Source: Candidatus Saccharimonadia bacterium | GTDB taxonomy: Bacteria > Patescibacteriota > Saccharimonadia > Saccharimonadales > UBA4665 | Direction of reading: 5' to 3' | NCBI GenBank assembly: GCA_035479335.1 | Contig: DATIIU010000002.1 | Location: forward strand, 37,716-101,715 | DNA length: 64,000 bases | In this document: one piece after another, positions 7,823-41,130 of the stretch | Layout: each line of letters starts with the position of its first letter | How positions within the stretch are numbered: position 1 is the stretch's first letter | Translations under genes and position numbers: made by a program | Notes under the pieces: generated by a model | The model's database searches: none | The model's input: the letters and a program-made list of their open reading frames with translations, nothing else | What the model was told of the DNA's origin: nothing

Positions 7823-8728
7823 ATGACCACCATGGACATCCGCGAGGAAGAGCTCCGCGAAGCTCTCGACTACCGCTCAACTGGCGGTGACGCCGGGTTC
7901 ATCGACGCGCTCTACCGTCGCGGCCACAGCGTCGAGACCATCCGGCGCGTGCTCGGCACGGTCAACAGCTACGACTCCGACTACTCGGACGAGGAGCTCA
8001 TCGCCGACCTGTTCGACTCGCACCGCGCCCTGAAGGACCGCGTCGACCGGCATGACATCATGTTCGCCGAAATCTTCCGTCGCCTCGACGACAAGGTCTC
8101 CAAGCGGACGTGGGCCGTCTCCATCATGGGATGGGCCGTGATGACCGTGCTGCTGTTCCTCCTCGACTGGCCCGGCACCAACGCGGCCGCGCACATCATC
8201 CAGGTGGTCTTCGGCTTCGGCGTGTTCTGCTTCGTGATCTACGCGGGTTCGCGCAACACGGAGCGCTCGTCCGACAACCGGAACCGCTGGACCCGTTCCA
8301 GGAACCGCTCCCGCGGCTCTCGCTCCGCTCACCCGGCACCCCGTCCCGCCGCTGTCCGCCCGCCGTCCCGCCCGGGTTCCGACACCGATCGTCCCGACCG
8401 CTCCCGCGGCTCGGCACGCTCGGGCGTCCTCCCTCGCGTCGGCGGCGAGCCCCGTACCTCCCTCGACGATCTCCTGGAAGGGTCTCACGTCGATGAGTAC
8501 CCCGTGGACGACGTCCATGAGGAGATCGAAGCTCGTCGCACCGACCCCAACGTGGGGAACGCCTTCGCCCACCTCGGCCCCGAGTCCGGCGTCGTCGGTT
8601 CCACCCCTGTCGGCTCCGGCCGTCCCGCCGCTGTCCGCCCGCCGTCCCGCCCGGGTTCCGACACCGGTGGCTCCCGTCCCACCCGCAGTCCCGCCGACGA
8701 CGTCTTCTTCAACCAGGACGAGGACTAG
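7823..8728 (+). CDS. high-GC hypothetical membrane protein with Arg/Pro/Ser-rich disordered tail (island A)
   Basis: 301 aa. GC3-rich codons, two central TM helices (WAVSIMGWAVMTVLLFLL, IIQVVFGFGVFCFVIYAG), repeated RPAAVRPPSRPGSDT. GAAGGG lies upstream of the ATG. Confidence 0.6.
   Translation: MTTMDIREEELREALDYRSTGGDAGFIDALYRRGHSVETIRRVLGTVNSYDSDYSDEELIADLFDSHRALKDRVDRHDIMFAEIFRRLDDKVSKRTWAVSIMGWAVMTVLLFLLDWPGTNAAAHIIQVVFGFGVFCFVIYAGSRNTERSSDNRNRWTRSRNRSRGSRSAHPAPRPAAVRPPSRPGSDTDRPDRSRGSARSGVLPRVGGEPRTSLDDLLEGSHVDEYPVDDVHEEIEARRTDPNVGNAFAHLGPESGVVGSTPVGSGRPAAVRPPSRPGSDTGGSRPTRSPADDVFFNQDED
8341..8676 (+). repeat. 47-bp perfect direct repeat (8341-8387 and 8630-8676) inside the island A ORF
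   Basis: CCGTCCCGCCGCTGTCCGCCCGCCGTCCCGCCCGGGTTCCGACACCG occurs twice, 289 bp apart, in the same frame. Confidence 0.9.
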
Positions 8729-8797
8729 TTGGTAGTTCGTACCACCTGACACTTGCGACCAGCGCCGCTGAGTTCGCCCGAACTAAGGAAGACAGTA

Positions 8798-10078
8798 ATG
8801 AGCAAAAGGACTTCGCGTTCCGGCGCCCTCATCGGCCTCGGATTCACGGCGGTGGCCGTGACTGCGCTCTGGCCGGCTATCAACAGCTCGGCTTCGGCCA
8901 ACGGCCCCGGCAAGCCCGGATCATCCGCCTCGGCCACGGCTTCCGCCACCGCCACCGGTTCGACCACCAGCCCGACGACCACCGTCACGACGTCCGCTCC
9001 GGCTCCCGCCGTGGCCAAGTCGTGCGACATCACCGGGATCGTGTTCTACCACAAGGATGCCACCGGCGACGACTTCGGCCCCAAGCCGACCGTCACCGAC
9101 TCGGCTTCAGCTGGGAAGCACTTCGAGGACAAGTTCTGTCCGTCCAAGGGCGCCAGTGACCCGTCGTTCGCCGCCGTGATCATCACTGCGCACGCACGAG
9201 CGGTCGCGACGCACACGAGCGGAGTCGACTCCACCACCGTCACCCAGGCGCAGGCTATGGCCACCGCGTGGGTCACCGGCAAGGACACCACCGACTGGAC
9301 CTCCAAGGTCACGGTCTTCGTGAAGACGATCGCCTCCTACGAGGTCAAGCAGGACAACAACCCGGTCTACTCCACCTTCAACATGCAGGGCGGCAAGGAC
9401 GGCCAGCCCACGCTGACCTTCACTGACAACGTGAACCACCCGGCCGGCCTGGTCGTGGTGATCCACTTCAACGACGGAACTCCGGACATGACGCTCCGGC
9501 TCGACTGCGACCTGCAGCCGACAACGGACGTCGCTGTGACGCCGAGCCCCACCACGGGTCCGACGACGCCGCAGCCGACGGGTTCCCAGGCGCCGCCCTG
9601 CACCACCTGCGGTGGCACCACGCCGTGCACGACCTGCAAGACCAGTACCACCCCGCCCCCGTGCGGAAGTGCGTGCAACCACACGACGCCGCCGACCACC
9701 CGGCCGACGACGCCGTCTTCACCGCCCCACAGCACCACCCCGCCCCCGCCGGCTCCCAAGCCCGCGCCGCTCATCGTCGACTACACTCGACTGAACGACG
9801 TGGACGCCGGACAGAGTTCACCCAACTACCGGGTGATCGTCCAGTTGGCCAGCGGCGACAGTGGCACACTGTGCATCAGCTCGGCCTACGGGTCGATCAG
9901 CACTCCGTGCTTCTCGGTCGGCGGCGGTGTCACCACCAAGTACGTGACCTACACGGCCCCGTACGACGCCGGCACCGGATCCGACACCATCACGATCAAC
10001 CTGACCGACAACACTCTCGGCAAGACGGTCTCGGCCTCGGACACCTTCAAGGTGAACCCGCCCCCGGTCCGGCCGTAG
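8798..10078 (+). CDS. high-GC secreted protein with Thr/Pro-rich and Cys-containing linker (island A)
   Basis: ATG at 8798 preceded by AAGGAAG. Signal peptide MSKRTSRSGALIGLGFTAVAVTALWPAINSSASA. The linker TPQPTGSQAPPCTTCGGTTPCTTCKTSTTPPPCGSAC separates two beta-rich halves. The ORF-track start at 8753 lacks an RBS. Confidence 0.65.
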   Translation: MSKRTSRSGALIGLGFTAVAVTALWPAINSSASANGPGKPGSSASATASATATGSTTSPTTTVTTSAPAPAVAKSCDITGIVFYHKDATGDDFGPKPTVTDSASAGKHFEDKFCPSKGASDPSFAAVIITAHARAVATHTSGVDSTTVTQAQAMATAWVTGKDTTDWTSKVTVFVKTIASYEVKQDNNPVYSTFNMQGGKDGQPTLTFTDNVNHPAGLVVVIHFNDGTPDMTLRLDCDLQPTTDVAVTPSPTTGPTTPQPTGSQAPPCTTCGGTTPCTTCKTSTTPPPCGSACNHTTPPTTRPTTPSSPPHSTTPPPPAPKPAPLIVDYTRLNDVDAGQSSPNYRVIVQLASGDSGTLCISSAYGSISTPCFSVGGGVTTKYVTYTAPYDAGTGSDTITINLTDNTLGKTVSASDTFKVNPPPVRP

Positions 10079-11664: not shown

Positions 11665-11992
11665 CTATCTATAGGGCAATTATTGCCAAGTTGGCAAAGA
11701 CTGTGGACAAGTACTAGCGTAATACGTAAAACTATGCTAGTCTGTCACACAGAAGTAAAAAGAGAGTACTCGTGACTGACCGCTCTTAAATTCCCCTATG
11801 CTAGCGCAAGGGGATTTTATTTTTGTATCTGTTGTGATATAATTTTCGAGTCGTTTTTGTTATATAGAAACTGGCAGAATCTGGCTCATGCGCTTATGAC
11901 CCAGAAACCTTGGCCTCATATGCAAAGCATATGAACCCGTTCGCTCGGAAGATAATTTTATGTGAGCATAAAATGTGTCTTCCTTCGCTTAC

Positions 11993-12067
11993 GGCCTCAT
12001 CGTCTAGCGGCTAGGACACCGGGTTTTCATCCCGGCAACCGGAGTTCGATTCTCCGTGAGGTCACCA
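11993..12067 (+). tRNA. tRNA-Glu(UUC): tRNA-Glu (anticodon UUC), CCA encoded
   Basis: Cloverleaf folded by hand. Acceptor GGCCTCA/TGAGGTC, anticodon stem CCGGG/CCCGG with loop TTTTCAT, T-arm GGAGTTCGATTCTCC, 3' CCA. Close to the E. coli tRNA-Glu pattern. Confidence 0.93.
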
Positions 12068-14355: not shown

Positions 14356-14934
14356 ATGATGAAAATAAAAAACAAACAAGACGGCTTTACTCATATTCTA
14401 CTGCTAGCTGTAATAGGTGTGCTAGTAGTCGGTATCTTCAGCGTTGTTTATGTAAAAGTTAATAATGCCTCAGATAAAAAGAGCGTAAATAGTGATGCTA
14501 CTAAAAATACAAGTACGTCAAAAAAGACTACTGTTACCCCAGTTGCGCTTGCTCCGGCGGATAAAGCAACCACGGTGACTCCCAAAACGACGACAACAAC
14601 TCCTACCACTAACTCAACTCCCACGGTAACTCCTAAAAACGCTGCGCCGATTAAGACAAGCCCGGCATCAAACATCGTTCACCCCACAATCGCCAACTGT
14701 AATCGACAGAACTTCACTGTTTATGCTAGCGTACCTTCTGGGACACCGGCATACAGCGAAGGTAATTTTTCTCAAGTGCTTTACACGTGGCCGTATGGCT
14801 CAGCAATTACTGATGTGTACTGTGACTCCGGCGATAGCAAACAGATGGTCTTTCGCGTAGATAATCCGGGTTCCCCTGATACCACCCAGTACAGTGCCTA
14901 TCATTGGGCTGATGTGAGCTTAACCAAACCCTAA
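14356..14934 (+). CDS. membrane-anchored hypothetical protein with Thr-rich linker (prepilin-like N-terminus without Glu+5)
   Basis: 192 aa. KQDGFTHILLLAVIGVLVVGIF resembles a class III signal (G|FT) but lacks the conserved Glu. T/P-rich spacer and a Cys-containing globular C-terminus. Confidence 0.6.
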   Translation: MMKIKNKQDGFTHILLLAVIGVLVVGIFSVVYVKVNNASDKKSVNSDATKNTSTSKKTTVTPVALAPADKATTVTPKTTTTTPTTNSTPTVTPKNAAPIKTSPASNIVHPTIANCNRQNFTVYASVPSGTPAYSEGNFSQVLYTWPYGSAITDVYCDSGDSKQMVFRVDNPGSPDTTQYSAYHWADVSLTKP

Positions 14935-17289: not shown

Positions 17290-20200
17290 ATGCCAGCGGC
17301 TCGCCTACCTGTTCCGGGTTCTGATGACAATGTATGGGGCGATTTACTCAACCAGTTCCTGCAGACCGAACACAACACTGATGGTACGCTCAAGATACGT
17401 ACTGATGGTACCTTCTACACTAAACCAAGTAGTGGGGTGCCTGCGACTGACCTTTCTGCCGCTGTCCAGGGCTCACTTAATAATGCCAATGCCGCTGCCC
17501 AAATAAGTGGTGATTTAGGTGGTACGAGTGCGACACCTCGCGTTGCTAAGTTGCAGAACGTAACGCTGAACGCAAGTACGCCAACCAATGGCCAGGTGTT
17601 AAACTTTAATGCTAGCGCTAATGCTTGGGTGCCCGGTACGGTCAGCTCGATGACTGTTAGCGATGCGACAACTACCACTAAGGGTATTGTTCAGCTTGCC
17701 GGAGATCTTGCGGGAGGTGGTGCTGGTGGGTCTTCGCTTGCTTCTAGTCCAGTCGTAGCCGCAGGTGTGATAACTGGCGGAGCTGGCGGCAAGATTGCAG
17801 CCGGAACGATTACTGATGCTAACATCGCAAGCTCAGCAGCTATTGCTAAGAGCAAGCTTGCTAATCTCGGTATTGTTGACAGTGATGTTGCGGCTATCTC
17901 TGAAAGTAAGATTACTAATCTGTCTACCGATCTGGCGGCGACCGAGAAGACTGCCAACAAAGGCGTGGCTAATGGCTATGCAGGTTTGGATGGTAGTAGT
18001 CTATTGCCAACCGCTAACCTTCCTGTTGTTCCTATCACAAAAATTCCAACGGGAACAACTGGTTCTACGGTTGTCATTGGGAATGACACTAGAGTAGTAG
18101 GGGCTGTGCAATCCTCAGTTGCAACAACCAAAGGAGATCTACTTGCTGCTACTGCGGCTAGTACTGTTGCAAGGCAAGGCATCGGGGCAGATGGACAAGT
18201 TTTAACCGCGGATTCTTCTCAGGGGACGGGGATGAAGTGGGGGAATCTGCCGAGTAACTTGCCACCAAGCGGTGCCGCAAGTGGTGATCTCACAGGAACA
18301 TACCCCGGCCCGGTGCTTGCAGCATCGGGTGTAGCCGCCAGTAGCTATGGGGATGCATCCCATGTCTCTCAAGTGACCTTTGATGTCAAAGGGCGCGCAA
18401 CAAGTGCAAGCAGTACTGCGATCCAGATTGCTGAATCACAAGTTACTAATCTTTCTACTGATCTTGCTAGCAAAGCACAGGCACTGACAACGGTAGCGGT
18501 TCAAACAGCTAGCCCATATAATGCATCGGTCGGACAGTTTATTCCATTAGACACAACCAATGGCAATATAACTGTTAACCTACCAAGTACACCTGCCGAC
18601 AAGTCGGTAGTAAGTATTAAGCTTATCGCGCAAGCATCCTCGAATACGGCAACGATTACTGCAGGCGGTTCTGATGTGTTCAATAAGGCCGGTGGTTCTA
18701 CGAGTCTGTCGCTTGGCTTAGTAAACCAAGCAGTAACTGCACAATACGCAAGTGCGTCGGGAATTTGGTATGTGCATGGTGATGATTTGCCGCTCTCAGA
18801 TCTTGATAGCCGGTATGTGCGACAGAATACCTTAGTGTATAACGTCAAAGACTACGGTGCGGTTGGTAATGGCACTACAGATGACACAACTGCGATTCAG
18901 AGTGCTCTAAACGCGGCACCAATTGGCGGAGTTGTGTACGTACCTACGGGAACATATGCCATCTCAGCGCCACTGGTCATCCCACCAATGATCACGCTAC
19001 AGGGTACTCACGGTAACCGTATCCAATATGCTACGGCAGTACAGAATACGACACTCATTAAGCCGCTCGCGAGTTTTTCGGGTATTGCTGCCCTGAGGCT
19101 ACTCGACAAGGAAGAAGGTGGCTATAGTGCTGACAATGGTGGCCAGCGTATTAACGATATTTCACTTGATGGTTCTGCGCTTGCAGGCGGCTCAAACATT
19201 AGTGGTCTGCGGGCAACAGGTATTGTCCGTGATGTAATGTTGCAGAGAGTGTGTATACAAAATTTTCCGAAAAATGGATTCTCGACCGCGTCGTATACTC
19301 GACTGGATTCATCTTCGGGTAATCCGTATTCATGGTATTGGTTTAGCTGTATTGCCAACGCCAATGCTAACATTGGATACTCCATTGCTGCCCTCACGGA
19401 CACAGCAGTTATTAACTGCGAAGCAATCGGCAACTTAGTATATGGTTTCTTTGTCTCAAGTATGGCTAACTGCGAAGTCACTAACTGTCGTGCCGAATGG
19501 AACGGCAACTATGGTTTCTATGTCACAGGTGGTACCGGGAATGGTGGTTGTACCTTTAACGGTATTAGCACTGACCGTAATGAAAAATCGGGTGTTTATA
19601 TTGATGCCACCGGTACAGCTCCGCTGCTCTTCAATGGTGTGCAGAATCGTCGCGATGGACGAAATGCTTCGCTCGGGGGCGGATCCTATGCAGGTTTTGA
19701 AGCTAACGGGGCGACTTGTCCAATTATTATTAATGGCATTACTTGCTACCCAGGTGTTAACGATGATGGGTCAGGAGTTAGCTCGCCTCAGTACGGTGCG
19801 AAGTTTACCAGCTGTACATTTGCACAGATTGATAACGCCTATCTACATGCGGCCACACAGGGCTTACGTAACAGCGGCAACAACACACAGCTTATCTTGG
19901 GTTCAACGATGACCTATGCAACAGGAGCTGCGAGTACACCAACACGGACATTTGGCGGCTATCAACTACTCAGGAAGTCAGCTGATACTGCTCGGACCTC
20001 AACGGCTAGCCCTACAGATGATCCTCACTTGACAACAACAGTTGAACCGAACGCTACGTATGAGGTTGAGATCTTCGCTCGTTACGATGGTGCAACCACC
20101 GGTGATTGGCAATTTGCTTTCGACGTTCCGGCAAGTGCAACCTTCCACTGGCAGGGCACGGGCCTTCAGTCTACCGCAACTGGCACGGTCGCCAGTGTCA

Positions 20201-20403
20201 AGATGAGCGCTGCTTCTGAAACAGGTGGTGATACATACGGTGCAGCGGGCGTTGGTACTAAGACTGGCGCAAATATTGCAGGGATTCTCATAACTAGTGC
20301 AACTGGTGGTACATTTGCGCTGAAATGGGCACAAGGTACCTCCGACCCAAGTGCAACTACGCTCTTTACGGATTCATATATGCGTCTCAGGCAAGTAGGT
20401 TAA
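17290..20403 (+). CDS. large tail-fibre/tailspike-like protein with right-handed beta-helix (pectate-lyase-superfamily) domain
   Basis: 1037 aa. The N-terminal third has phage tail-fibre-type motifs (GYAGLDGSSLLPTANLP; duplicated ES(K/Q)(I/V)TNLSTDLA). The motif YNVKDYGAVGNGTTDDTTAIQSALNAAP...VYVPTGTY starts at about nt 18838 and is typical of the Pectate_lyase_3/tailspike fold. Confidence 0.8.
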   Translation: MPAARLPVPGSDDNVWGDLLNQFLQTEHNTDGTLKIRTDGTFYTKPSSGVPATDLSAAVQGSLNNANAAAQISGDLGGTSATPRVAKLQNVTLNASTPTNGQVLNFNASANAWVPGTVSSMTVSDATTTTKGIVQLAGDLAGGGAGGSSLASSPVVAAGVITGGAGGKIAAGTITDANIASSAAIAKSKLANLGIVDSDVAAISESKITNLSTDLAATEKTANKGVANGYAGLDGSSLLPTANLPVVPITKIPTGTTGSTVVIGNDTRVVGAVQSSVATTKGDLLAATAASTVARQGIGADGQVLTADSSQGTGMKWGNLPSNLPPSGAASGDLTGTYPGPVLAASGVAASSYGDASHVSQVTFDVKGRATSASSTAIQIAESQVTNLSTDLASKAQALTTVAVQTASPYNASVGQFIPLDTTNGNITVNLPSTPADKSVVSIKLIAQASSNTATITAGGSDVFNKAGGSTSLSLGLVNQAVTAQYASASGIWYVHGDDLPLSDLDSRYVRQNTLVYNVKDYGAVGNGTTDDTTAIQSALNAAPIGGVVYVPTGTYAISAPLVIPPMITLQGTHGNRIQYATAVQNTTLIKPLASFSGIAALRLLDKEEGGYSADNGGQRINDISLDGSALAGGSNISGLRATGIVRDVMLQRVCIQNFPKNGFSTASYTRLDSSSGNPYSWYWFSCIANANANIGYSIAALTDTAVINCEAIGNLVYGFFVSSMANCEVTNCRAEWNGNYGFYVTGGTGNGGCTFNGISTDRNEKSGVYIDATGTAPLLFNGVQNRRDGRNASLGGGSYAGFEANGATCPIIINGITCYPGVNDDGSGVSSPQYGAKFTSCTFAQIDNAYLHAATQGLRNSGNNTQLILGSTMTYATGAASTPTRTFGGYQLLRKSADTARTSTASPTDDPHLTTTVEPNATYEVEIFARYDGATTGDWQFAFDVPASATFHWQGTGLQSTATGTVASVKMSAASETGGDTYGAAGVGTKTGANIAGILITSATGGTFALKWAQGTSDPSATTLFTDSYMRLRQVG

Positions 20404-20553
20404 TACCACTGACAACTAGAAAGTAGCGCACAGTACATCTGTTGTCGGGCTTTACTGGCTATTGTATAGTTATTGTTTTAATGGTACGGTAGCAACGTTA
20501 TTCACCTATACAGTGATAACAGGTCATTTGCAGTCGAGACAGGAAGGGATCCC

Positions 20554-22260
20554 GTGTCACCCCGCTTCAGGTACTTCCGCGATCCACCGGCGCAAGGTAA
20601 GAGATTGCCCACGCCGCCGACCAACTACGAGAGAAAGGTGTATGTACAACGGCGTCTATGGTGGCTGACGCCTCTGTCGATGGTGTCCTTTACGGGTATC
20701 ACCATCTCGCAGGTTCTGTTCGGGCTGCGTCATCCGGCGCTGTTCGTCTTCTTGCCCCTGACCGCCTTCACGGTCTTCTACTACATCATCAGCCTGATGG
20801 TGACAGTCGGGTCGAAGGACTTCGACTACGATCGTCATGTCGAGCTGGTGAGCGACTGGTGGGAGCGGGTGAAACTTGGTCATGGGATGACGGCGCCCAG
20901 CGTCGACATCCTTTTGCCGATCTGCGGCGAGCCGATCCAAGTGATCCTCAACACCTGGCGCTACGTCAAGGAGCTCACCTATCCCGGTGTCGTGAAGGTC
21001 TATGTCCTCAACGACGGCCCCGATGGCCAGGACGAGGCGTTCCTCAAGCAGGAGGCGGCAGATCTGGGCTTCGTCTACCTCCGTCGCCCGGCTCGGACCG
21101 AAGCGAACACCCTGAACTTCAGGGGTGCCGAGAAGAAGGCGGGCAACCTGCACCACGGTCTGACTTACAGCGATGAACACGACCCTGGTGAGCTCGTCGT
21201 CATCTTTGACGCGGACTTCGTGCCAGCGAACATGATGCTGATGCACATGGTGCCCTACTTCTGGCGCTACAAGGGCCGGGGACACGACAAGGGCCTGGGT
21301 CTCTTGCAAACACCGCAGTACTTCCGCACCTGGAGCTCGCACATGGGCTGGCTGGAGCGCGGTGCGGGTGCTGTGCAAGAGTGGTTCTACCGCATCTCGC
21401 AGACCAGTCGCGAGCGGTGGGACGCCTCGATCTGCGTGGGCACTTGTGCCATGTACAGTCGGAAGGCCTTGAAGGAAAACGGCTGGACGACACTGATCGA
21501 GCACTCCGAGGACGTGCACACCGGGTACGACCTGCGTCGACTCGAGTGGCAGCTGATGTACATCCCCGTCGCTCTGTCGACTGGGATCTGCCCGTCGGTG
21601 CGCTCCTCCTTCCTCGCACAGCAGTACCGTTGGTGCATGGGCTCAATGAGCCTGCTCACCAGCCGCAAGTTCTGGAGCCTCAAGATGCCAATCCGCGCTC
21701 GCGCGGGGTACCTGTCGGGCTTCAGCTACTACATCCACACCGCCATGTTGACGTTTGTGGCTCCGGCTATCCCGCTGGTGCTGCTCGTGTTCTACCCGGA
21801 GATGGTGTACGCCAAGAACTATCGGCTCATCACGCCGAGCTTGGTGTACACGCTCGTGGCGGTACCGCTCTGGCACCGTAGCAAGTTCGGCTTGTCTGCG
21901 TTCGCCGTAAAGATGGTGTACGGCTGGGCGCACGTGTTCGCACTGCTCGACAAGGTTCGCGGCCGCCAGAAGGGCTGGCAAGCGACCGGCAACGCTGGTT
22001 CTACCCGAGGGATGCTGGACAAGCATTTCCTCGTAGGTACGATCGGCTGGGGCTGTACAACGGCCCTGGCTTGGATCGGGCTCGCAGTGTGGCGTGCTAC
22101 TATCGCCCCTGGAGTCGGCTGGGTGAACTTCATGCCTATGCTGGCATCGGGCTTGGTCTACGCGGCGGTCGTCGGTAAGACGCTCACCAAGACTGAGAGG
22201 TCCGAAGATCCAGAGTCGGACGACCAACTGGTCATGGAGTTGAGTGACAGTGACCGCTAG
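20554..22260 (+). CDS. high-GC processive family-2 glycosyltransferase (cellulose-synthase-like BcsA/CesA type) (island B)
   Basis: 568 aa. GTG preceded by AGGAAGGG. Motifs VLNDG, VIFDADF (DxD), QTPQYF, HSEDVHTG (TED), QQYRWCMG (QxxRW). TM helices on both sides of the catalytic domain. Hand count for 21001-21060 is 39/60 GC. Confidence 0.88.
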   Translation: MSPRFRYFRDPPAQGKRLPTPPTNYERKVYVQRRLWWLTPLSMVSFTGITISQVLFGLRHPALFVFLPLTAFTVFYYIISLMVTVGSKDFDYDRHVELVSDWWERVKLGHGMTAPSVDILLPICGEPIQVILNTWRYVKELTYPGVVKVYVLNDGPDGQDEAFLKQEAADLGFVYLRRPARTEANTLNFRGAEKKAGNLHHGLTYSDEHDPGELVVIFDADFVPANMMLMHMVPYFWRYKGRGHDKGLGLLQTPQYFRTWSSHMGWLERGAGAVQEWFYRISQTSRERWDASICVGTCAMYSRKALKENGWTTLIEHSEDVHTGYDLRRLEWQLMYIPVALSTGICPSVRSSFLAQQYRWCMGSMSLLTSRKFWSLKMPIRARAGYLSGFSYYIHTAMLTFVAPAIPLVLLVFYPEMVYAKNYRLITPSLVYTLVAVPLWHRSKFGLSAFAVKMVYGWAHVFALLDKVRGRQKGWQATGNAGSTRGMLDKHFLVGTIGWGCTTALAWIGLAVWRATIAPGVGWVNFMPMLASGLVYAAVVGKTLTKTERSEDPESDDQLVMELSDSDR

Positions 22261-22287
22261 TTCCTGTCGCTAGTCGACAACGGAACT

Positions 22288-22323
22288 GAGGCGGGGGCGC
22301 AAACACCCACGCGCCCCTGCCTC
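22288..22323 (+). terminator. GC-rich hairpin 3' of the GT2 gene
   Basis: GAGGCGGGGGCGC-aaacacccac-GCGCCCCTGCCTC (13-bp stem, one G-T pair), no T-tail. Confidence 0.5.
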
Positions 22324-22420
22324 ACCCTAAGCGTTTATACGAGCTACGTGCTCATTCAAATGCTTAGGTTTTGCTTCCATGAATGTGTATTCATGCTGAT
22401 GAGTTCAAAAGAACGAAAAG

Positions 22421-22465
22421 CATCTCTAGGGTGTTCGATTGCCCACAACTCTATATGCTACTAAG
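22421..22465. repeat. degenerate copy of the 23051-23120 promoter/leader repeat
   Basis: CATCTCTAGGGTGTTCGATTGCCCACAACTCTATATGCTACTAAG aligns with CATCCTAGGGTGTGTTCGGGTCTCCGAAGAGATCTATATAGTATTAAA. Confidence 0.5.
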
Positions 22466-22473
22466 TTGTTGCC

Positions 22474-22515
22474 TCAACTAAATACTGCAGGATCGTTCCT
22501 GGAGTACTTAGTTGA
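22474..22515. terminator. 18-bp-stem hairpin beginning GCCTCAACTAAA (family-1 slot terminator)
   Basis: TCAACTAAATACTGCAGG-atcgtt-CCTGGAGTACTTAGTTGA, 16 of 18 positions paired. Its first 12 nt with the preceding GC are identical to the hairpin at 34559. Confidence 0.55.
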
Positions 22516-22543
22516 AGACAGATTGGATAGCAGTGACGCGCAT

Positions 22544-22603
22544 GGCGGTGGGTAGTGTCCGAAGACAACTGTAGACTGGGCTAATCCCAGGTTACCCACC
22601 GCC
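22544..22603 (-). terminator. GC-rich nested inverted repeat 3' of the cassette C ORF
   Basis: Outer perfect 11-bp stem GGCGGTGGGTA (22544-22554) / TACCCACCGCC (22593-22603). Inner hairpin CTGGG-ctaat-CCCAG. Confidence 0.45.
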
Positions 22604-22640
22604 CGCGCGACTACTGGTATCACGCTGCCCTCAGCTCGTA

Positions 22641-23045
22641 CTAGACGCTTGCTGACACGCCGTTCATCAGTTGCCGGAGGTTGTGCATGAGCGCGGCCAG
22701 GTCGACAGTGATGTCGCACGAGCTCTCTCCGGGCTGACGGAAGCGAGTCACCTCGATGTACATCTTGGCATCAGCGAGGGCATCCCCCGTGAAGCAGTCG
22801 ATGAGTGCGTCGATGGAGATCGGGGCATCGGTCTGGTCCGATGCCGTGATTGTGTACTGCCGGCTGCCTGGGGCCTGGTTCTCGCCAGTAGTGGTTGCTG
22901 AGGGGTGCTTCCCTTCCGTGAGTGTTGGGAGCATGCCCCAGACCGTGAGCGTCACCTCGTAGCCGGTGTCAGCCCATGAAGCCTGGAGATGCGCCTTACC
23001 CGTAGCCCGGCTGGACCTGCTGCGGTGTTGTTGAGAACGGAGCAT
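22641..23045 (-). CDS. high-GC hypothetical protein (cassette C cargo)
   Basis: 134-aa ORF with GC3-rich codons. The ATG is 7 nt downstream of the right inverted-repeat arm. No motif recognised. Confidence 0.5.
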   Translation of the reverse strand: MLRSQQHRSRSSRATGKAHLQASWADTGYEVTLTVWGMLPTLTEGKHPSATTTGENQAPGSRQYTITASDQTDAPISIDALIDCFTGDALADAKMYIEVTRFRQPGESSCDITVDLAALMHNLRQLMNGVSASV

Positions 23046-23050
23046 CGTGG

Positions 23051-23120
23051 TTCCAATCTGTTGTTAACACATCCTAGGGTGTGTTCGGGTCTCCGAAGAG
23101 ATCTATATAGTATTAAAACA
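23051..23120. repeat. promoter/leader repeat, full copy (upstream of cassette C cargo)
   Basis: The 40-nt core GTGTTCGGGTCTCCGAAGAGATCTATATAGTATTAAAACA (23081-23120) is 37/40 identical to 25094-25133. On the minus strand it reads TTAAGA-18-TATATA followed by a hairpin leader. Confidence 0.8.
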
Positions 23121-23201
23121 CTTTTTGTCTTAAATGACCACTGGCATGAGCCAGCATAATTTATTTACACAATAAAATAAAAGTGATACTTTAAAGTTAT
23201 C

Positions 23202-24503
23202 ATGGTGACCGAAGCGGCGCTCACACCTCAAAATATCCCTGAGTATGTCCGCGGTCAAATTCCACTCGTAGCTGAACTTGCTCGTCACTCATCCAACGGT
23301 GAAGCACTTGGAGTTTTGGCGTGTACAATTATTGCGATTGATGGAAATGTTGCTTCGGGTCGTGCCTTTGCAGAAGAGCAGATTGCATTAGGGCATACTG
23401 TTGCCAAACCTTTATGGCCAGTCGATGCAGAAGGCGTTGTAGCTGAAGGACGGGCAGAGATTATTAGTCGTGAGGATTTTCCAGCTTATGAACAGGCCGA
23501 TATTTGGAAGTGGCTTGGTTGGAAAGGTGATGAGGAAGCACGAGATAAAGCCTGGGAGCTACTTGATGATGCTGTTCTAGCCGTTAGGCGAAGCTATTCA
23601 GAGAAAGGTCTTTTTGATCAGATCACACAGGATGAAGCCGCACAGACTGCCGCAGTTGCATATTCGCTTGTTCGCGGGTATGACAACCGGCCAGAAAGCC
23701 TCCAGAGAGCTCGTGATATAGCTGCGCTTGCTGCAGAAGCTGGAAGTCCGCAGCATTTGGCGCTTTTATACGACCAAGGTGATGACGAAAGCTTTAACAG
23801 AGAGATTGAAATCTTTGATACCCAAATCCAGCAAGCTACTTCTGAAGCAGGAGAAGAGAAAATCCGCTTTGAACACAGCTACACACTATACGATTTAGCG
23901 CTTAAGGCTGTCGCCCGTGATAATTTTGATCAAGCTACACAAGCCATGGATCGCCTTACGGATGATAGCTTGAAGGTGAGCATTCACGCTGCGCTATTTG
24001 GCAAAGATCCAACTGGGCCACTGCCACCATTCATTGAGAATTTCTTAAGCCGTACAGATCTAAGAGGGGGATGGACACCGTCAGTAACGCGTGCACTAGC
24101 AATAGCCCAATATTCACCGGCAATTGAGCGCTTGAGAGTATCGACGGAAGGTAGGCGAGAAATGCAGCTGCATGCATTATTAGATGCCGGTGTTGAAGGT
24201 GCGCGCGAGCAATTGCTGGCATGTGTTGCTGATCCAGAAAAAGGGGCGGTCGGCCTATGTAGTGAGCTTGACGATCTTACGAAGCACGGCCTTAAGGAAG
24301 AGGCGCTGCAAATTGCTAAAGAGCGATACGCAGAGAAAGACGAAGCGAGCATTGCGTATTGGATTTGGATGCACGAGGCTACGCCCGACATTACTCTGTG
24401 GCCCCGTGCTTATGCGGGTGCGCACGAGCATCGAGGGATTAGGGCGGCATATGCACTGCATAAACTTGCGCGACTAGCAACTCAGGCAACAGCTGAAGCG
24501 TAG
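23202..24503 (+). CDS. hypothetical protein (helical, no recognised motif)
   Basis: 433-aa ORF with backbone composition. Confidence 0.6.
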   Translation: MVTEAALTPQNIPEYVRGQIPLVAELARHSSNGEALGVLACTIIAIDGNVASGRAFAEEQIALGHTVAKPLWPVDAEGVVAEGRAEIISREDFPAYEQADIWKWLGWKGDEEARDKAWELLDDAVLAVRRSYSEKGLFDQITQDEAAQTAAVAYSLVRGYDNRPESLQRARDIAALAAEAGSPQHLALLYDQGDDESFNREIEIFDTQIQQATSEAGEEKIRFEHSYTLYDLALKAVARDNFDQATQAMDRLTDDSLKVSIHAALFGKDPTGPLPPFIENFLSRTDLRGGWTPSVTRALAIAQYSPAIERLRVSTEGRREMQLHALLDAGVEGAREQLLACVADPEKGAVGLCSELDDLTKHGLKEEALQIAKERYAEKDEASIAYWIWMHEATPDITLWPRAYAGAHEHRGIRAAYALHKLARLATQATAEA

Positions 24504-25081: not shown

Positions 25082-25133
25082 TTCCAATACTTTGTGTTCG
25101 GGTCTCCAAGGAGATCTATATAGTCTTAAAACA
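25082..25133. repeat. solo copy of the promoter/leader repeat with no cargo ORF
   Basis: TTCCAATACTTTGTGTTCGGGTCTCCAAGGAGATCTATATAGTCTTAAAACA. It lacks the CTGT of the inverted-repeat arm and a 17-nt segment present in the 23051 copy. Confidence 0.8.
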
Positions 25134-25265
25134 TATTCTATTAAAGATTGGAAGATTGATCAATCTAACGAGATGCATAAGCTTCGGTATGACCCTCCTC
25201 TTTGCTCTCTTCGGTGCAGAAGCGCTTGCAAGAAGTAAACATAAGCGAGTACACTTAAGGGGAAA

Positions 25266-34562: not shown

Positions 34563-34602
34563 CAACTAAACAGTACAAGATTTGTGTTGTACTGCTTGGT
34601 TG
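34563..34602. terminator. 16-bp-stem hairpin beginning GCCTCAACTAAA (family-1 slot terminator)
   Basis: CAACTAAACAGTACAA-gatttgtg-TTGTACTGCTTGGTTG, 14 Watson-Crick pairs plus one G-T out of 16. It starts at the rsmA stop codon. Confidence 0.55.
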
Positions 34603-34632
34603 GGGACAGATCAGGAGGGGCTATGGCGCGCA

Positions 34633-34692
34633 GTGCGGCGGGCGGTGTCAGAAGACACCATATCCGGACGTATGTCCAGACTCCCGCCGCAC
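34633..34692 (-). terminator. GC-rich nested inverted repeat 3' of the cassette D ORF
   Basis: Outer 10-bp stem GTGCGGCGGG / CCCGCCGCAC. Inner hairpin GGTGTC-agaa-GACACC. Confidence 0.45.
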
Positions 34693-34713
34693 GCACGACT
34701 AGCTGCTCTGTCC

Positions 34714-35235
34714 TCAGATGATCGCCGTCGCGGTGGCCTCGTCGGGAGTGGTCCCGGCCGTGCGCATCATGTCTGCTGCCATGAGGCTTCCCAGGGCGCG
34801 GACCGTCTTGAGGTTCACCCGGAGCGTTGTGGACTGGTCGGGGTCCTGGGCGGTGGCTTGCAGGGCACGGCGACGGTTCTTGTTGCCGGCGATGCGGCTC
34901 AGCACAGCCTCCATGGCGGCCCCGTTGACAGTCTCGGCGACGCTCAGCACGGCGTCGCAGTTTTGAACGGTCAGACGGTAGGGGCTGACCTCGGGGTTGT
35001 GCCTCTCGTTGTAGGCGTAGGCCTCGACCTCCGTGGGCTCGCCGAGCTGGTAGTTCACATGGGGGTGGTCCGTCGGCAGCTCACGCTCGGCGAGCAGTTC
35101 GTGGTTGACGAACGCGAAGTCTGTGGTCATCGTGCCATCGTCAGACGGTCGCTGGACGATCGTCATCTCCACCCTGGTGGGCAGCATGCACGTCACGGCG
35201 GAACGGCCGAATTGGATGATGTCCGCGAAAGCCAT
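34714..35235 (-). CDS. high-GC hypothetical protein (cassette D cargo)
   Basis: 173-aa ORF with GC3-rich codons. AGGAGG lies 7 nt upstream of the ATG. No motif recognised. Confidence 0.5.
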   Translation of the reverse strand: MAFADIIQFGRSAVTCMLPTRVEMTIVQRPSDDGTMTTDFAFVNHELLAERELPTDHPHVNYQLGEPTEVEAYAYNERHNPEVSPYRLTVQNCDAVLSVAETVNGAAMEAVLSRIAGNKNRRRALQATAQDPDQSTTLRVNLKTVRALGSLMAADMMRTAGTTPDEATATAII

Positions 35236-35302
35236 GAGGCTTCCTCCTGATCTGTTGGTCTGCTTGAAGCAGATGCTGTATACCCAGAGGGTACTATATG
35301 GT

Positions 35303-36920: not shown

Positions 36921-37655
36921 TCAGACCTGCAGGTCGTTCTTCCCACCGATGTTCATGGACGTCACCTTCAGGTCGGGCAGCTGGTCAGTCACCATGCTGA
37001 GGAGGTTCTGGACCGTCGGGTCCGACAGCCAGACGCCGGAGGACACCTCGATCAGGTACGACGTGTCACCGGTGGTGTACACGAAGAGCAGGTCGAAGGC
37101 GGTCGGCTTGTTGTTGCGGTCGTTCCAGATGGTCTCGACCTGCTGGTCGAAGATCTTGCCGCTGGCGGCGTGGAACTTCCACGTGCTCGCGATGCCGTCC
37201 GGCCAGAGGCTGGCGACGACGGGGCCGCGGAGGTGGAACGTGAAGCCGTCCGAGATGGTCTGGCGCGAGCCGTAGCCCATGATGGTGAAGCTCGCCAGAG
37301 CGTCCGTGGAGATCCCTCCCGACGGGGTCGTGGTCACCATGGCGTACTGGCAGTTGTCCTCGTAGTCGCCGGTCTTGGTCGGGTCGTTGCCGGACGGGAG
37401 CAGATCGGCCATGTTGACGGCGAGGTCAGGCGCGATGTTGTTCACCGCTTTCACCGGCAGCAGCGCGCAGGTGTCGATCCTGTGGTCGTTGTTGTAGACG
37501 GACCTCTGGGTCGGCGCGGCGCTGGTGCTGGTCGCGGTCGGCGGGATGGAGGCCTGGCGCTGCTGCGGCTGGCTGGTCTGAACGGCGCCGAAGGCGGCCA
37601 GGCCACCAATGGCGAGCAGTGCGATGATGCTGAGGCGACGGCGGATGTTGCGCAT
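36921..37655 (-). CDS. high-GC secreted protein, possibly DUF3558-like (island E)
   Basis: 244 aa. Signal peptide MRNIRRRLSIIALLAIGGLAAFGA. IDTCALLPVKAVNNIA and a second conserved Cys resemble actinobacterial DUF3558 proteins (from memory). Hand count for 37381-37440 is 40/60 GC. Confidence 0.6.
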   Translation of the reverse strand: MRNIRRRLSIIALLAIGGLAAFGAVQTSQPQQRQASIPPTATSTSAAPTQRSVYNNDHRIDTCALLPVKAVNNIAPDLAVNMADLLPSGNDPTKTGDYEDNCQYAMVTTTPSGGISTDALASFTIMGYGSRQTISDGFTFHLRGPVVASLWPDGIASTWKFHAASGKIFDQQVETIWNDRNNKPTAFDLLFVYTTGDTSYLIEVSSGVWLSDPTVQNLLSMVTDQLPDLKVTSMNIGGKNDLQV

Positions 37656-40200: not shown

Positions 40201-40659
40201 TCAGCTCTCGTCGTCAGTGGTGACGGCAGGGAGCGTGATCTCCGCACTGCTCGTGATCTCGATCCACTCGGTGGTCTTCGCGAGCTGAGCGTGAGCCACC
40301 GGGAACCGGGCCGCGAAGACCTCGGCGTTCAGGTAGGTCAGGAGCTCACCCGTGCCGAGTCCGCCGCGCCCGGAGATGGTGCGGTTGTAGACGAAGACGT
40401 GCCCGTCGGCCTCGCCTATGGTGTCGAAGAGCTCGTGGATGTGCTGGAGCTCCTCGTAGCAAGGGAGGCAGATGGCCGAGGTGGTGCCGTCGTTCATCGG
40501 GAGGACCGCCCTGCCGTCGATCTCGTGCTCCATGAGCTCGCCCCAGGCGTTGGCAGCCCTCTGGCTGTTGAAGACCAAGGCCAGGTCGCCGGTCTCGATG
40601 AAGCCCGGGCCCTTGTGGGTGAGTGCGACGTGGCAGTGGAACGGGTGCCCGGTAGACAT
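40201..40659 (-). CDS. high-GC hypothetical protein (island F)
   Basis: ATG 40659 is preceded by AAAGGAA (translation starts MSTGHPFHCHV...). GC3-rich codons. A terminator-like GCCCACCGGGTGC plus T-rich run lies at 40126-40145 on the minus strand. Confidence 0.5.
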   Translation of the reverse strand: MSTGHPFHCHVALTHKGPGFIETGDLALVFNSQRAANAWGELMEHEIDGRAVLPMNDGTTSAICLPCYEELQHIHELFDTIGEADGHVFVYNRTISGRGGLGTGELLTYLNAEVFAARFPVAHAQLAKTTEWIEITSSAEITLPAVTTDDES

Positions 40660-41130
40660 GGTGTGGTTCCTTTCGGTTTGCACGGAGTCTCTTCTGTCAC
40701 TCAACTCTCACAAGGGAGGTGTCGGGCTGTGTCTTGAAATTGCATGGTAAGACACCAACAAGAAGAGTAAGAGGCTACTACGTTGTCCGTAATTTTCTCA
40801 TACCCTTCTTGGTAGCTAGTAGTGTAGGCGGTATTGTATCAGTCTACGCTATACCATATGTTGCTGTTTGTGAAGGTACGGTTGGAGTGTTGGAGCATGG
40901 AGCCCCTTCCTCGACAACGCTAAATGAAAGCAGGTGCTCTCACCGTGATTATTATATAATAATTTATAATCTAGAGCAAGAATCATGAATGTGGCTAGTA
41001 TGCAAAAAATGGATATGGCGCGTCTGCTAGATGAGCTTAAACATGTAATCTTGACACGACTTTTAGACTGCATCAAGATGGATGGATGGGTTGAGCGACT
41101 GCTCCCCATGTAAGTCTCAGTGCACGACTA

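Follow-up and report, generated by a model that had tools for sequence, protein, structure and literature searches.

A BcsA-like glycan synthase, a tailspike-like neighbour and a candidate hammerhead ribozyme: parts of a putative conserved surface module of soil-type Saccharibacteria

Contig DATIIU010000002.1 of a Candidatus Saccharimonadia bacterium carries a high-GC gene for a predicted processive glycan synthase of glycosyltransferase family 2 (GT2), and it is this gene and the features around it (Table 1) that we describe here. The window, meaning the whole stretch of 64,000 nucleotides (nt) that was analysed, encodes pyruvate kinase, NUDIX and HAD proteins, a transfer-messenger RNA (tmRNA) and tRNAs, and is therefore cellular. 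An original prediction, made from the sequence without database searches, had singled out the gene as "island B", a foreign insertion dropped behind a tailspike-like gene. Our results largely confirm what was observed and partly support how it was interpreted: the enzyme class and the foreign flavour were judged correctly, whereas the recency, the boundaries and the lack of a partner were not. The locus is best described as a module in which a tail-fibre-like protein accompanies an actinomycete-type GT2 synthase that is followed, on its 3′ side, by a GC-rich hairpin and then a type-III hammerhead. We lean, cautiously, towards the view that island B is the high-GC half of an old and conserved surface module of soil-type Saccharibacteria (Saccharimonadales) rather than a lone, recent insertion.

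Table 1. Features of the synthase locus and its flanks (positions in the window)
Feature	Position	Strand	Remarks
Tail-fibre/tailspike-like surface protein	17290..20403	+	1037 amino acids (aa); native GC content at third codon positions (GC3), 0.41; conserved neighbour of the synthase
Sigma-70-like promoter candidate, TTGTCG-17-TATAGT	20442..20470	+	From consensus scan; AT-rich like the backbone
5′ leader	20482..20553	+	Ends in ribosome-binding site (RBS) AGGAAGG (20541-20547); ~90% identical to L001
GT2 processive glycan synthase open reading frame (ORF), BcsA-like	20554..22260	+	GTG start; 568 aa; GC 0.609; GC3 0.81
Right arm of 8-bp inverted repeat, TTCCTGTC	22261..22268	+	Missing at the orthologous position in L001
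GC-rich 13-bp hairpin 3′ of the stop codon	22288..22323	+	No U-tract; kept in L001 through G-U changes
Type-III hammerhead ribozyme candidate	22368..22426	+	110 nt past the synthase stop, in a low-GC spacer
Small high-GC orphan ORF	22641..23045	-	134 aa; GC3 0.76; convergent with the synthase; makes up the second stretch of the high-GC tract

The synthase, its neighbour and a candidate ribozyme

For comparison we used six other low-GC loci (L001/L004, L005, L008/L009, L010, L013 and L015), which have a flank GC of 0.46-0.51 and lie in small-genome contexts. The synthase itself is the 568-residue plus-strand ORF of the original prediction. Its upstream GTG start is backed by a strong RBS and its N-terminus is kept in homologues from about residue 10; the database copy, P0001, has 540 aa, a later GTG having been taken as the start. 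The D, DxD, TED and QxxRW set expected of processive beta-glycan synthases is present as D154 (in NDG), D219-A-D221, S318-E-D320 (at the TED position) and Q356-Q-Y-R-W360, and all of the catalytic motif residues are invariant in a 38-sequence alignment of homologues. Pfam matches are to generic GT2 families alone (PF13632, PF13641 and PF00535), and when a profile of the family was compared with the PDB, BcsA chains matched at E ~4e-46 as the best solved relatives by sequence. An AlphaFold (AF2) model (predicted local distance difference test, pLDDT, 85.4; predicted template-modelling score, pTM, 0.85) shows two transmembrane (TM) helices at the N-terminus, then a GT-A domain, then interface and TM helices that form a C-terminal bundle. 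The modelled helices, at residues 35-84 and 380-543, lie on either side of the glycosyltransferase domain, where TM helices had been expected, and a 25-residue tail closes the C-terminus. Foldseek searches with this model placed BcsA on top (E 3e-18, TMq 0.57-0.62), followed by hyaluronan synthases (HAS) and plant CesAs. These comparisons support the BcsA-like processive class that had been predicted. With a ratio of nonsynonymous to synonymous divergence (dN/dS) of ~0.16 against the L004 orthologue, the gene is under purifying selection.

The protein falls far below the NCBIfam cellulose-synthase cut-offs (TIGR03030, 127.9 bits against 699.1; NF008558, 102 against 992). As the original prediction had noted, there is no PilZ module: of the C-terminal PilZ domain (RxxxR ... 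DxSxxG) found in BcsA of the cyclic di-GMP-activated Bcs system, the protein shows neither a Pfam match nor the DxSxxG motif. No BcsB, BcsZ or BcsC partner is encoded among the ORFs between 15.8 and 26.7 kb (Pfam) or in any related locus. Judged from its model, the enzyme would act as a synthase-translocase of the BcsA type, with the BcsA/CesA/HAS fold, yet it is not a member of a Bcs system.

In composition the gene stands out from its surroundings, with a GC content of 0.609 against ~0.48, and GC steps sharply at either end of the ORF. ORFs of native composition in the window have GC values of 0.43-0.52 and GC3 values of 0.35-0.53; besides the synthase, several others are GC3-rich. The contrast with the neighbours is thus real, but the figure of about 65% given for the gene was an overestimate, and 22327 is not, as had been proposed, the end of the high-GC tract: past a low-GC spacer it resumes from about 22500 to 23050, over a small minus-strand ORF.

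Upstream lies the gene that had been called tailspike-like, and its product is a genuine homologue of tail proteins, matching Pfam PF12708 (E 1.6e-18) and phrog_11699, annotated as a minor tail protein (E 3.8e-79). An N-terminal module, ARLPxPGxDxxWGxLLNxFLxxEHNxDGTLK, is followed by DUF5907 repeats and, C-terminally, by a pectate-lyase-like beta-helix. Among phage proteins, tailspikes of Streptomyces phages match the beta-helix best (E 2e-81, with 47% identity across 380 aa), and Streptomyces phages account for 54 of the 113 phage records matched. The N-terminal module, about 35 residues long and often followed by DUF5907 repeats, is common to the synthase neighbours in 7/7 loci. Each locus has one such gene, which adjoins the synthase every time, in varying orientation. 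The C-terminal domains are the same beta-helix in the window, L004 and L005 (the window and L005 proteins are 74% identical over 545 aa), an unassigned domain in L008 and L010, a BppL_N-like domain in L013, and GH26 plus CBM4_9 in L015. The earlier statement that the synthase has no partner genes therefore holds for BcsB and PilZ but not for this upstream neighbour, conserved in all seven loci. Because GH26 is the family of the synthase's partner hydrolase in actinomycetes, we infer that the tail-fibre-like proteins bind or cut the glycan made by the synthase or its counterpart on the host. A gene with the same N-terminal module also occurs on a metagenome contig (L037, 7755-8960, minus strand), with a hammerhead of like class ~850 nt upstream and no GT2.

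On the 3′ side of the synthase, the 13-bp GC hairpin of the original prediction is present, pairing 22288-22300 with 22311-22323 and including one G.U pair; a scan for intrinsic terminators did not call it. GC-rich inverted repeats, recognised by eye and unfolded, also follow the synthase stop in L005, L008, L010, L013 and L015. Past the hairpin, the alignment with L001 exposed a near-invariant block of 53 nt that led us to a candidate type-III hammerhead ribozyme with three predicted helices, I and II capped and III open. Stem III pairs 22372-22376 with 22418-22422, the stem I and stem II hairpins occupy 22378-22395 and 22403-22414, the core CUGAUGA lies at 22396-22402, and cleavage is predicted after C22377. 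The Rfam Hammerhead_3 model matches over its full length (35.1 bits, E 3.9e-5), and the minimum-free-energy fold is a three-way junction. A full core (C3-U4-G5-A6-N7-G8-A9, G12-A13-A14, A15.1-U16.1, and H17 other than G) is found in the window, L001, L008 and L013. Within the core, the window and L001 differ at N7 and H17 only, which are positions that tolerate variation.

Searches by motif, with Rfam and with a covariance model of our own revealed a hammerhead on the same strand, ~110-170 nt after the synthase stop, in five other lineages (L001, L008, L013, L015 and L005), and none in actinomycete synthase loci. When Rfam was run across four complete loci it missed hammerheads that turned up in narrower searches, so negatives from wide searches are not trusted. 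In the five copies compared, both partners have changed at 10 of 16 pairs, and pairing holds in 95% of cells, compared with 30-47% in slid controls; the observed values were reached in 0 of 500 shuffles. In L005, L008 and L013 the hammerhead lies directly next to the stop codon of a gene in convergent orientation; in L015 it is placed between the synthase and its partner. The L005 element (11743-11955, plus strand) has a structured insertion of ~150 nt in stem II (fold z-score -3.96) and may represent either a regulated form or a disrupted one.

Upstream of the pyruvate kinase gene of L001, at 14535-14593 (plus strand; 59 bits with our own model), there is a second hammerhead-like element. Its 15.1 and 16.1 positions are swapped (U15.1-A16.1), it carries a U.U at 10.1/11.1, and the window lacks a counterpart. 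The pattern CTGANGAGYYCAAAAGRRCGAAA, which combines the core with stem II, is very common in metagenome and viral contigs, with at least 240 loci (L016-L255). Among the matches listed, type-III hammerheads make up about 90%; their stems measure ~7, 4 and 5 bp, most of them are intergenic, and they lie at a median distance of 79 nt from the stop of a co-directional ORF against 497 nt for random positions. GT2 is absent from all 240 listed loci. If these viral and metagenomic copies also score below the RF00008 gathering threshold, routine annotation would miss them.

Promoter candidate and leader at the 5′ junction are of native composition. The box TTGTATAGT, pointed out in the original prediction, lies at 20463-20471 within the promoter-like sequence of Table 1; the box itself is poorly conserved in L001, and so are the 80 nt that precede the leader. 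We considered and rejected a conserved leader or riboswitch: the leader is shared by the window and L001 only, the other lineages are without it, and it has no Rfam match. The 8-bp inverted repeat said to bracket the gene exists as described (GACAGGAA at 20538-20545 and its right arm after the stop codon), and such a repeat arises in 3.7% of shuffles of two 70-nt junction windows. As an island boundary, however, it was rejected, since L001 does not conserve it and the left arm shares bases with the conserved RBS; it is most likely a chance match. With unconserved terminal repeats, and with no integrase or transposase domain among the neighbouring ORFs examined, the tract lacks the marks of a mobile island.

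Relatives, age and surroundings of the synthase

The closest relative of the synthase, at 81% identity, lies in the same gene order on L001, a contig of a metagenome-assembled genome labelled Candidatus Saccharibacteria. Copies with 53-57% identity are found in three further low-GC loci, L008, L010 and L005. L008 belongs to the Saccharimonadales, its GltX being 74-80% identical to Candidatus Saccharimonadales proteins, and L010 is syntenic with it. According to the original prediction, best hits in the same phylum with comparable GC would have counted against a foreign origin. The best hits are indeed in Saccharibacteria or similar genomes, but every copy is itself a high-GC island: this is so in 7/7 low-GC loci, with GC3 values of 0.72-0.94.

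Beyond these loci the family is large, with 2082 matches, including more than 100 clusters at 46-50% identity over 88-96% of the query. The named relatives at that identity (Streptomyces, Streptacidiphilus, Sphaerisporangium and Planotetraspora) are actinomycetes without exception, and no actinomycete protein among 5.8 billion clusters searched is closer than ~50% to any copy; the copies are mutually 53-81% identical. Close GT2 relatives in viral contigs, at 47% identity or less, were also considered and set aside as probably derived from actinomycete prophage regions. In Streptomyces and Sphaerisporangium the homologue heads a GT2-GH26-PMT_2 operon whose composition matches the GC of its genome. 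The GH26 and PMT_2 genes are not in the window, and tblastx found no remnants of them, including in the downstream high-GC tract; among the low-GC loci, a GH26 domain survives solely inside the tail-fibre-like neighbour of L015. The best reading of these data is that the ancestry of the synthase is foreign and lies in the actinomycete operon family. The original prediction that the gene is compositionally foreign is upheld by its GC3 of 0.81. The direction of transfer is read from composition and breadth of distribution, not from a rooted tree.

Several results suggest that the synthase has long resided in these genomes. In an unrooted neighbour-joining (NJ) tree of the top 120 matches, bootstrap support for a clade of the five closest copies is 91-94%; the clade extended by the L015 copy, P0033, and its sister P0018, making seven sequences, has 74% support. 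The segment from the tailspike-like gene to the small ORF aligns as a block between the window and L004, at 74% nucleotide identity, and the flanks on either side differ. The GT2 protein has diverged as much as its syntenic neighbours: dN is 0.11 for GT2 and 0.10 for the neighbour between the window and L004, and 0.21 and 0.15-0.20, respectively, between L008 and L010. A shared ribozyme, a shared neighbour and a clade of synthases suggest a single origin and long residence, in which case decay of the high GC3 would be expected. The tRNA-Glu gene lies 5 kb upstream of the module in the window (11993-12067) and right after it in L001 (8504-8575), showing that the neighbourhood has been rearranged around a conserved block.

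Other features of the window deserve mention. The small orphan ORF has an L004 orthologue of equal length and frame (39% identity, dN/dS ~0.57), no homologue beyond it, and no Pfam, NCBIfam or PHROG match. Between it and the hammerhead lies a stretch conserved with L001 (22495-22620), in which GGCGGTGGGTA ... TACCCACCGCC are complementary over a long range and an inner hairpin seems to vary in a compensatory way; the stretch could be a terminator for the minus-strand ORF or a small RNA. A native element is repeated at 23075-23125 and 25096-25140, where a hairpin, GGTCTCC-N4-GGAGATC, is followed by TATATAGT. It precedes the genes at 23202 and 25266 (pyk), occurs also at 7858-7918 of L001, and is probably a promoter module typical of the lineage. 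Further high-GC tracts (GC 0.64-0.69, GC3 up to 0.94) lie at 7823-10078, 36921-37655 (minus strand), 40201-40704 (minus strand) and 34582-35250. The products of 8753-10078 and 36921-37655 have signal-peptide-like N-termini, the former being Thr/Pro-rich as well. The ORFs scanned, in the tracts at 7823-10078 and 36921-37655, gave no Pfam match; all of the tracts may be additional host-derived surface genes.

Weighing the explanations

A number of observations weigh against an old, shared module of Saccharibacteria. Among the related loci, L001 and L008 alone have been placed taxonomically; the label Saccharibacteria-like that we give to L005, L010, L013 and L015 is based only on their synteny, GC and gene content. 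With 1% support for its joining the main clade, the L013 copy is unplaced, and the low-GC copies share a shifted amino-acid make-up that could group them artificially in an unrooted NJ tree. The hammerheads score 35.1, 31.8, 33 and 29 bits with Rfam, below the gathering threshold of 48.5, and are not listed in a gathering scan; the L015 element is a weaker variant with a U.U at 10.1/11.1 and no Rfam match, and L010 has no hammerhead motif downstream of its synthase. The adjacency of a tail-fibre-like gene is no proof that its product acts on the synthase product, and processive polymerisation, sugar and linkage are deduced from fold and motifs.

A further difficulty is the GC3 itself, since values of 0.72-0.94 after long residence contradict simple amelioration. 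GC1, GC2 and the amino-acid make-up of the synthase have moved towards low-GC values, yet its GC3 equals that of actinomycete copies. Synonymous sites of the neighbours are saturated or nearly so, and in the closer pairs the synthase has diverged less at such sites. In one pair, the excess codon identity of the synthase is 0.39, against 0.16-0.17 for the neighbours, and in a second it is 0.18 against 0-0.11; in the third, the window and L005, it is 0.06 against 0.05, and the genes are equally saturated. The persistence could be explained by selection acting at synonymous sites, by host DNA that has converted the gene repeatedly, or by donors that are absent from the sampling. A GC3 that outlasts the synonymous saturation of neighbouring genes challenges the logic by which amelioration is used to date transfers.

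One response to this difficulty is that different Saccharibacteria captured host synthases repeatedly, independently and fairly recently, for instance through natural competence and recombination into an existing module. Such a history, which we think unlikely, would explain the host-like GC3 of 7/7 copies in genomes of 0.46-0.51 GC, the lower synonymous divergence of GT2 relative to its neighbours, and the position of the L013 copy. It also fits the report that cultured Saccharibacteria live on Actinobacteria hosts only (PMC11659515). Independent captures would not, however, each gain the same low-GC hammerhead in the same position, or the same neighbour, and they sit poorly with the support for the five-member clade, with an amino-acid composition that has already drifted towards low-GC values, and with the ceiling of ~50% identity between any copy and the actinomycete proteins among the 5.8 billion clusters searched.

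We are equally doubtful that the locus is a domesticated prophage remnant, in which a tailspike, a lysogenic-conversion synthase that modifies surface glycan and a phage-type hammerhead would all descend from a phage of Saccharibacteria or of their hosts, and the module would serve to modify receptors or to exclude superinfection. In favour of this reading, the neighbour is a genuine homologue of a phage tail protein, the hammerhead class is abundant in viral contigs, and the module occupies a different chromosomal place in each lineage; temperate phages, moreover, often carry genes for surface-glycan modification. Against this, Pfam revealed no capsid, terminase or integrase in the neighbouring ORFs or among the Pfam-listed genes of the related loci, phage records contain no near-identical DNA, no GT2 relative in a viral contig exceeds 47% identity, and no GT2 was seen at the 240 sampled hammerhead loci, among the matches listed. 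Tailspike and synthase are also so different in composition that they did not arrive as one piece.

It is also conceivable, though improbable, that host-like GC3 is actively maintained in the epibiont, by selection on synonymous sites or mRNA or by re-copying from host alleles, and that the locus is a cassette dedicated to coupling with the host, combining a ribozyme-ended transcript with a synthase of host type and a tailspike of host-phage type. If this were true, the surface glycan of the actinomycete host would also be produced, and gripped, by the epibiont. Episymbiont and host would then be genetically coupled in a new way, and the hammerhead would be the first in bacteria with a defined cellular job.

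We give little credence to the idea that the gene is native to Saccharibacteria, or was transferred in the reverse direction, with its high GC3 a gene-specific adaptation. GC3 has been held across a deep divergence, as would not be expected of neutral foreign DNA, and promoter, leader and ribozyme are all of native composition. But the family, large and diverse in actinomycetes (the 2082 matches above), is patchy in Saccharimonadales, where a handful of GT2 clusters compares with more than 100 relatives of the L008 GltX at 73-82% identity, and the actinomycete copy sits in a fuller operon of matching composition.

The recent, self-contained foreign cassette of the original prediction, bounded by its 8-bp inverted repeat and without a functional partner, is largely refuted and now highly improbable. 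The sharp GC steps at both ORF ends speak for it, as does a repeat that lies where it had been placed and arises in just 3.7% of shuffles. However, the right arm is missing in L001 and the left arm overlaps a conserved RBS, the neighbouring ORFs examined showed no integrase or transposase domain, low-GC relatives exist at 81% and 53-57% identity, the synthase is syntenic in a second genome with a dN like that of its neighbours, and both the neighbouring gene and the ribozyme are conserved in other lineages. Finally, an assembly or binning chimera joining actinomycete DNA to a Saccharibacterial contig, suggested by the abrupt switch in composition, can be dismissed, as the same mosaic with both junctions conserved appears in independent NCBI, JGI and ENA assemblies.

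Proposed function and comparison with known systems

For the old surface module that we favour, we propose that a native AT-rich promoter drives transcription of the synthase, which would polymerise a nucleoside-diphosphate sugar into a beta-linked glycan extruded on the surface of the epibiont. The GH26 partners point to a chain of mannan or glucan type. Where the epibiont touches an actinomycete host, the tail-fibre-like protein may bind or trim this glycan or its counterpart on the host. The hammerhead would cut read-through transcripts just past the hairpin, leaving the synthase mRNA with a defined, hairpin-protected 3′ end and keeping it apart from the gene that follows; this gene runs convergently in most lineages and co-directionally in one. 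As first suggested, the enzyme could plausibly act at the cell surface or at the interface with a host. How Saccharibacteria grip their actinomycete hosts is largely unexplained, and the conserved pairing of a host-family synthase with a tailspike of host-phage type offers a testable candidate for the chemistry of contact; the module may also hint at the identity of the host, which could be Streptomyces-like. A hammerhead fixed 3′ of one gene across diverged genomes, in turn, provides a defined system in which to study a role in mRNA processing or termination. Cellular roles of prokaryotic hammerheads are still described as open (PMC6155905). Our literature search found nothing that links a hammerhead with Patescibacteria or Saccharibacteria with cellulose synthase, and, for a Streptomyces cellulose synthase-like gene with GH26, work on beta-mannanase only and none on the operon.

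Among characterised enzymes, the synthase most resembles BcsA (PDB 4HG6, 4P00 and 7LBY), with which it shares a GT-A domain carrying the D, DxD, (T/S)ED and QxxRW motifs, interface helices and a TM bundle. Identity is only ~20%, and the window protein has 568 aa against about 730-890. BcsA carries a C-terminal PilZ domain and has BcsB, BcsZ and BcsC neighbours, all of which are missing here by Pfam and motif scan. Homology to the synthases of actinomycete GT2-GH26-PMT_2 operons, which are annotated as "cellulose synthase (UDP-forming)", extends over the full length, with a like length class and like GC3. In contrast to those operons, a tail-fibre-like protein stands in the window where GH26 and PMT_2 would, the amino-acid make-up is shifted towards low-GC values, and a hammerhead, of which none was detected in actinomycete loci, lies 3′ of the synthase.

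The neighbour resembles the tailspike and minor tail proteins of Streptomyces phages (phrog_11699) through its beta-helix. Unlike those proteins it belongs to the genome of a cell, where Pfam showed no further phage genes in the neighbouring ORFs, and the beta-helix is fused to a 500-aa N-terminal repeat region, the first ~35 residues of which are common to the GT2 neighbours. The candidate ribozyme, with its complete core, three helices and intergenic position after a co-directional ORF, is similar to the type-III hammerheads (RF00008) of prokaryotic and phage genomes (PMC6155905), and its architecture matches the abundant viral and metagenomic class. What sets it apart from known prokaryotic and phage hammerheads, besides a score under the Rfam gathering threshold, is its linkage, across diverged episymbiont genomes, to one chromosomal gene family rather than to phage.

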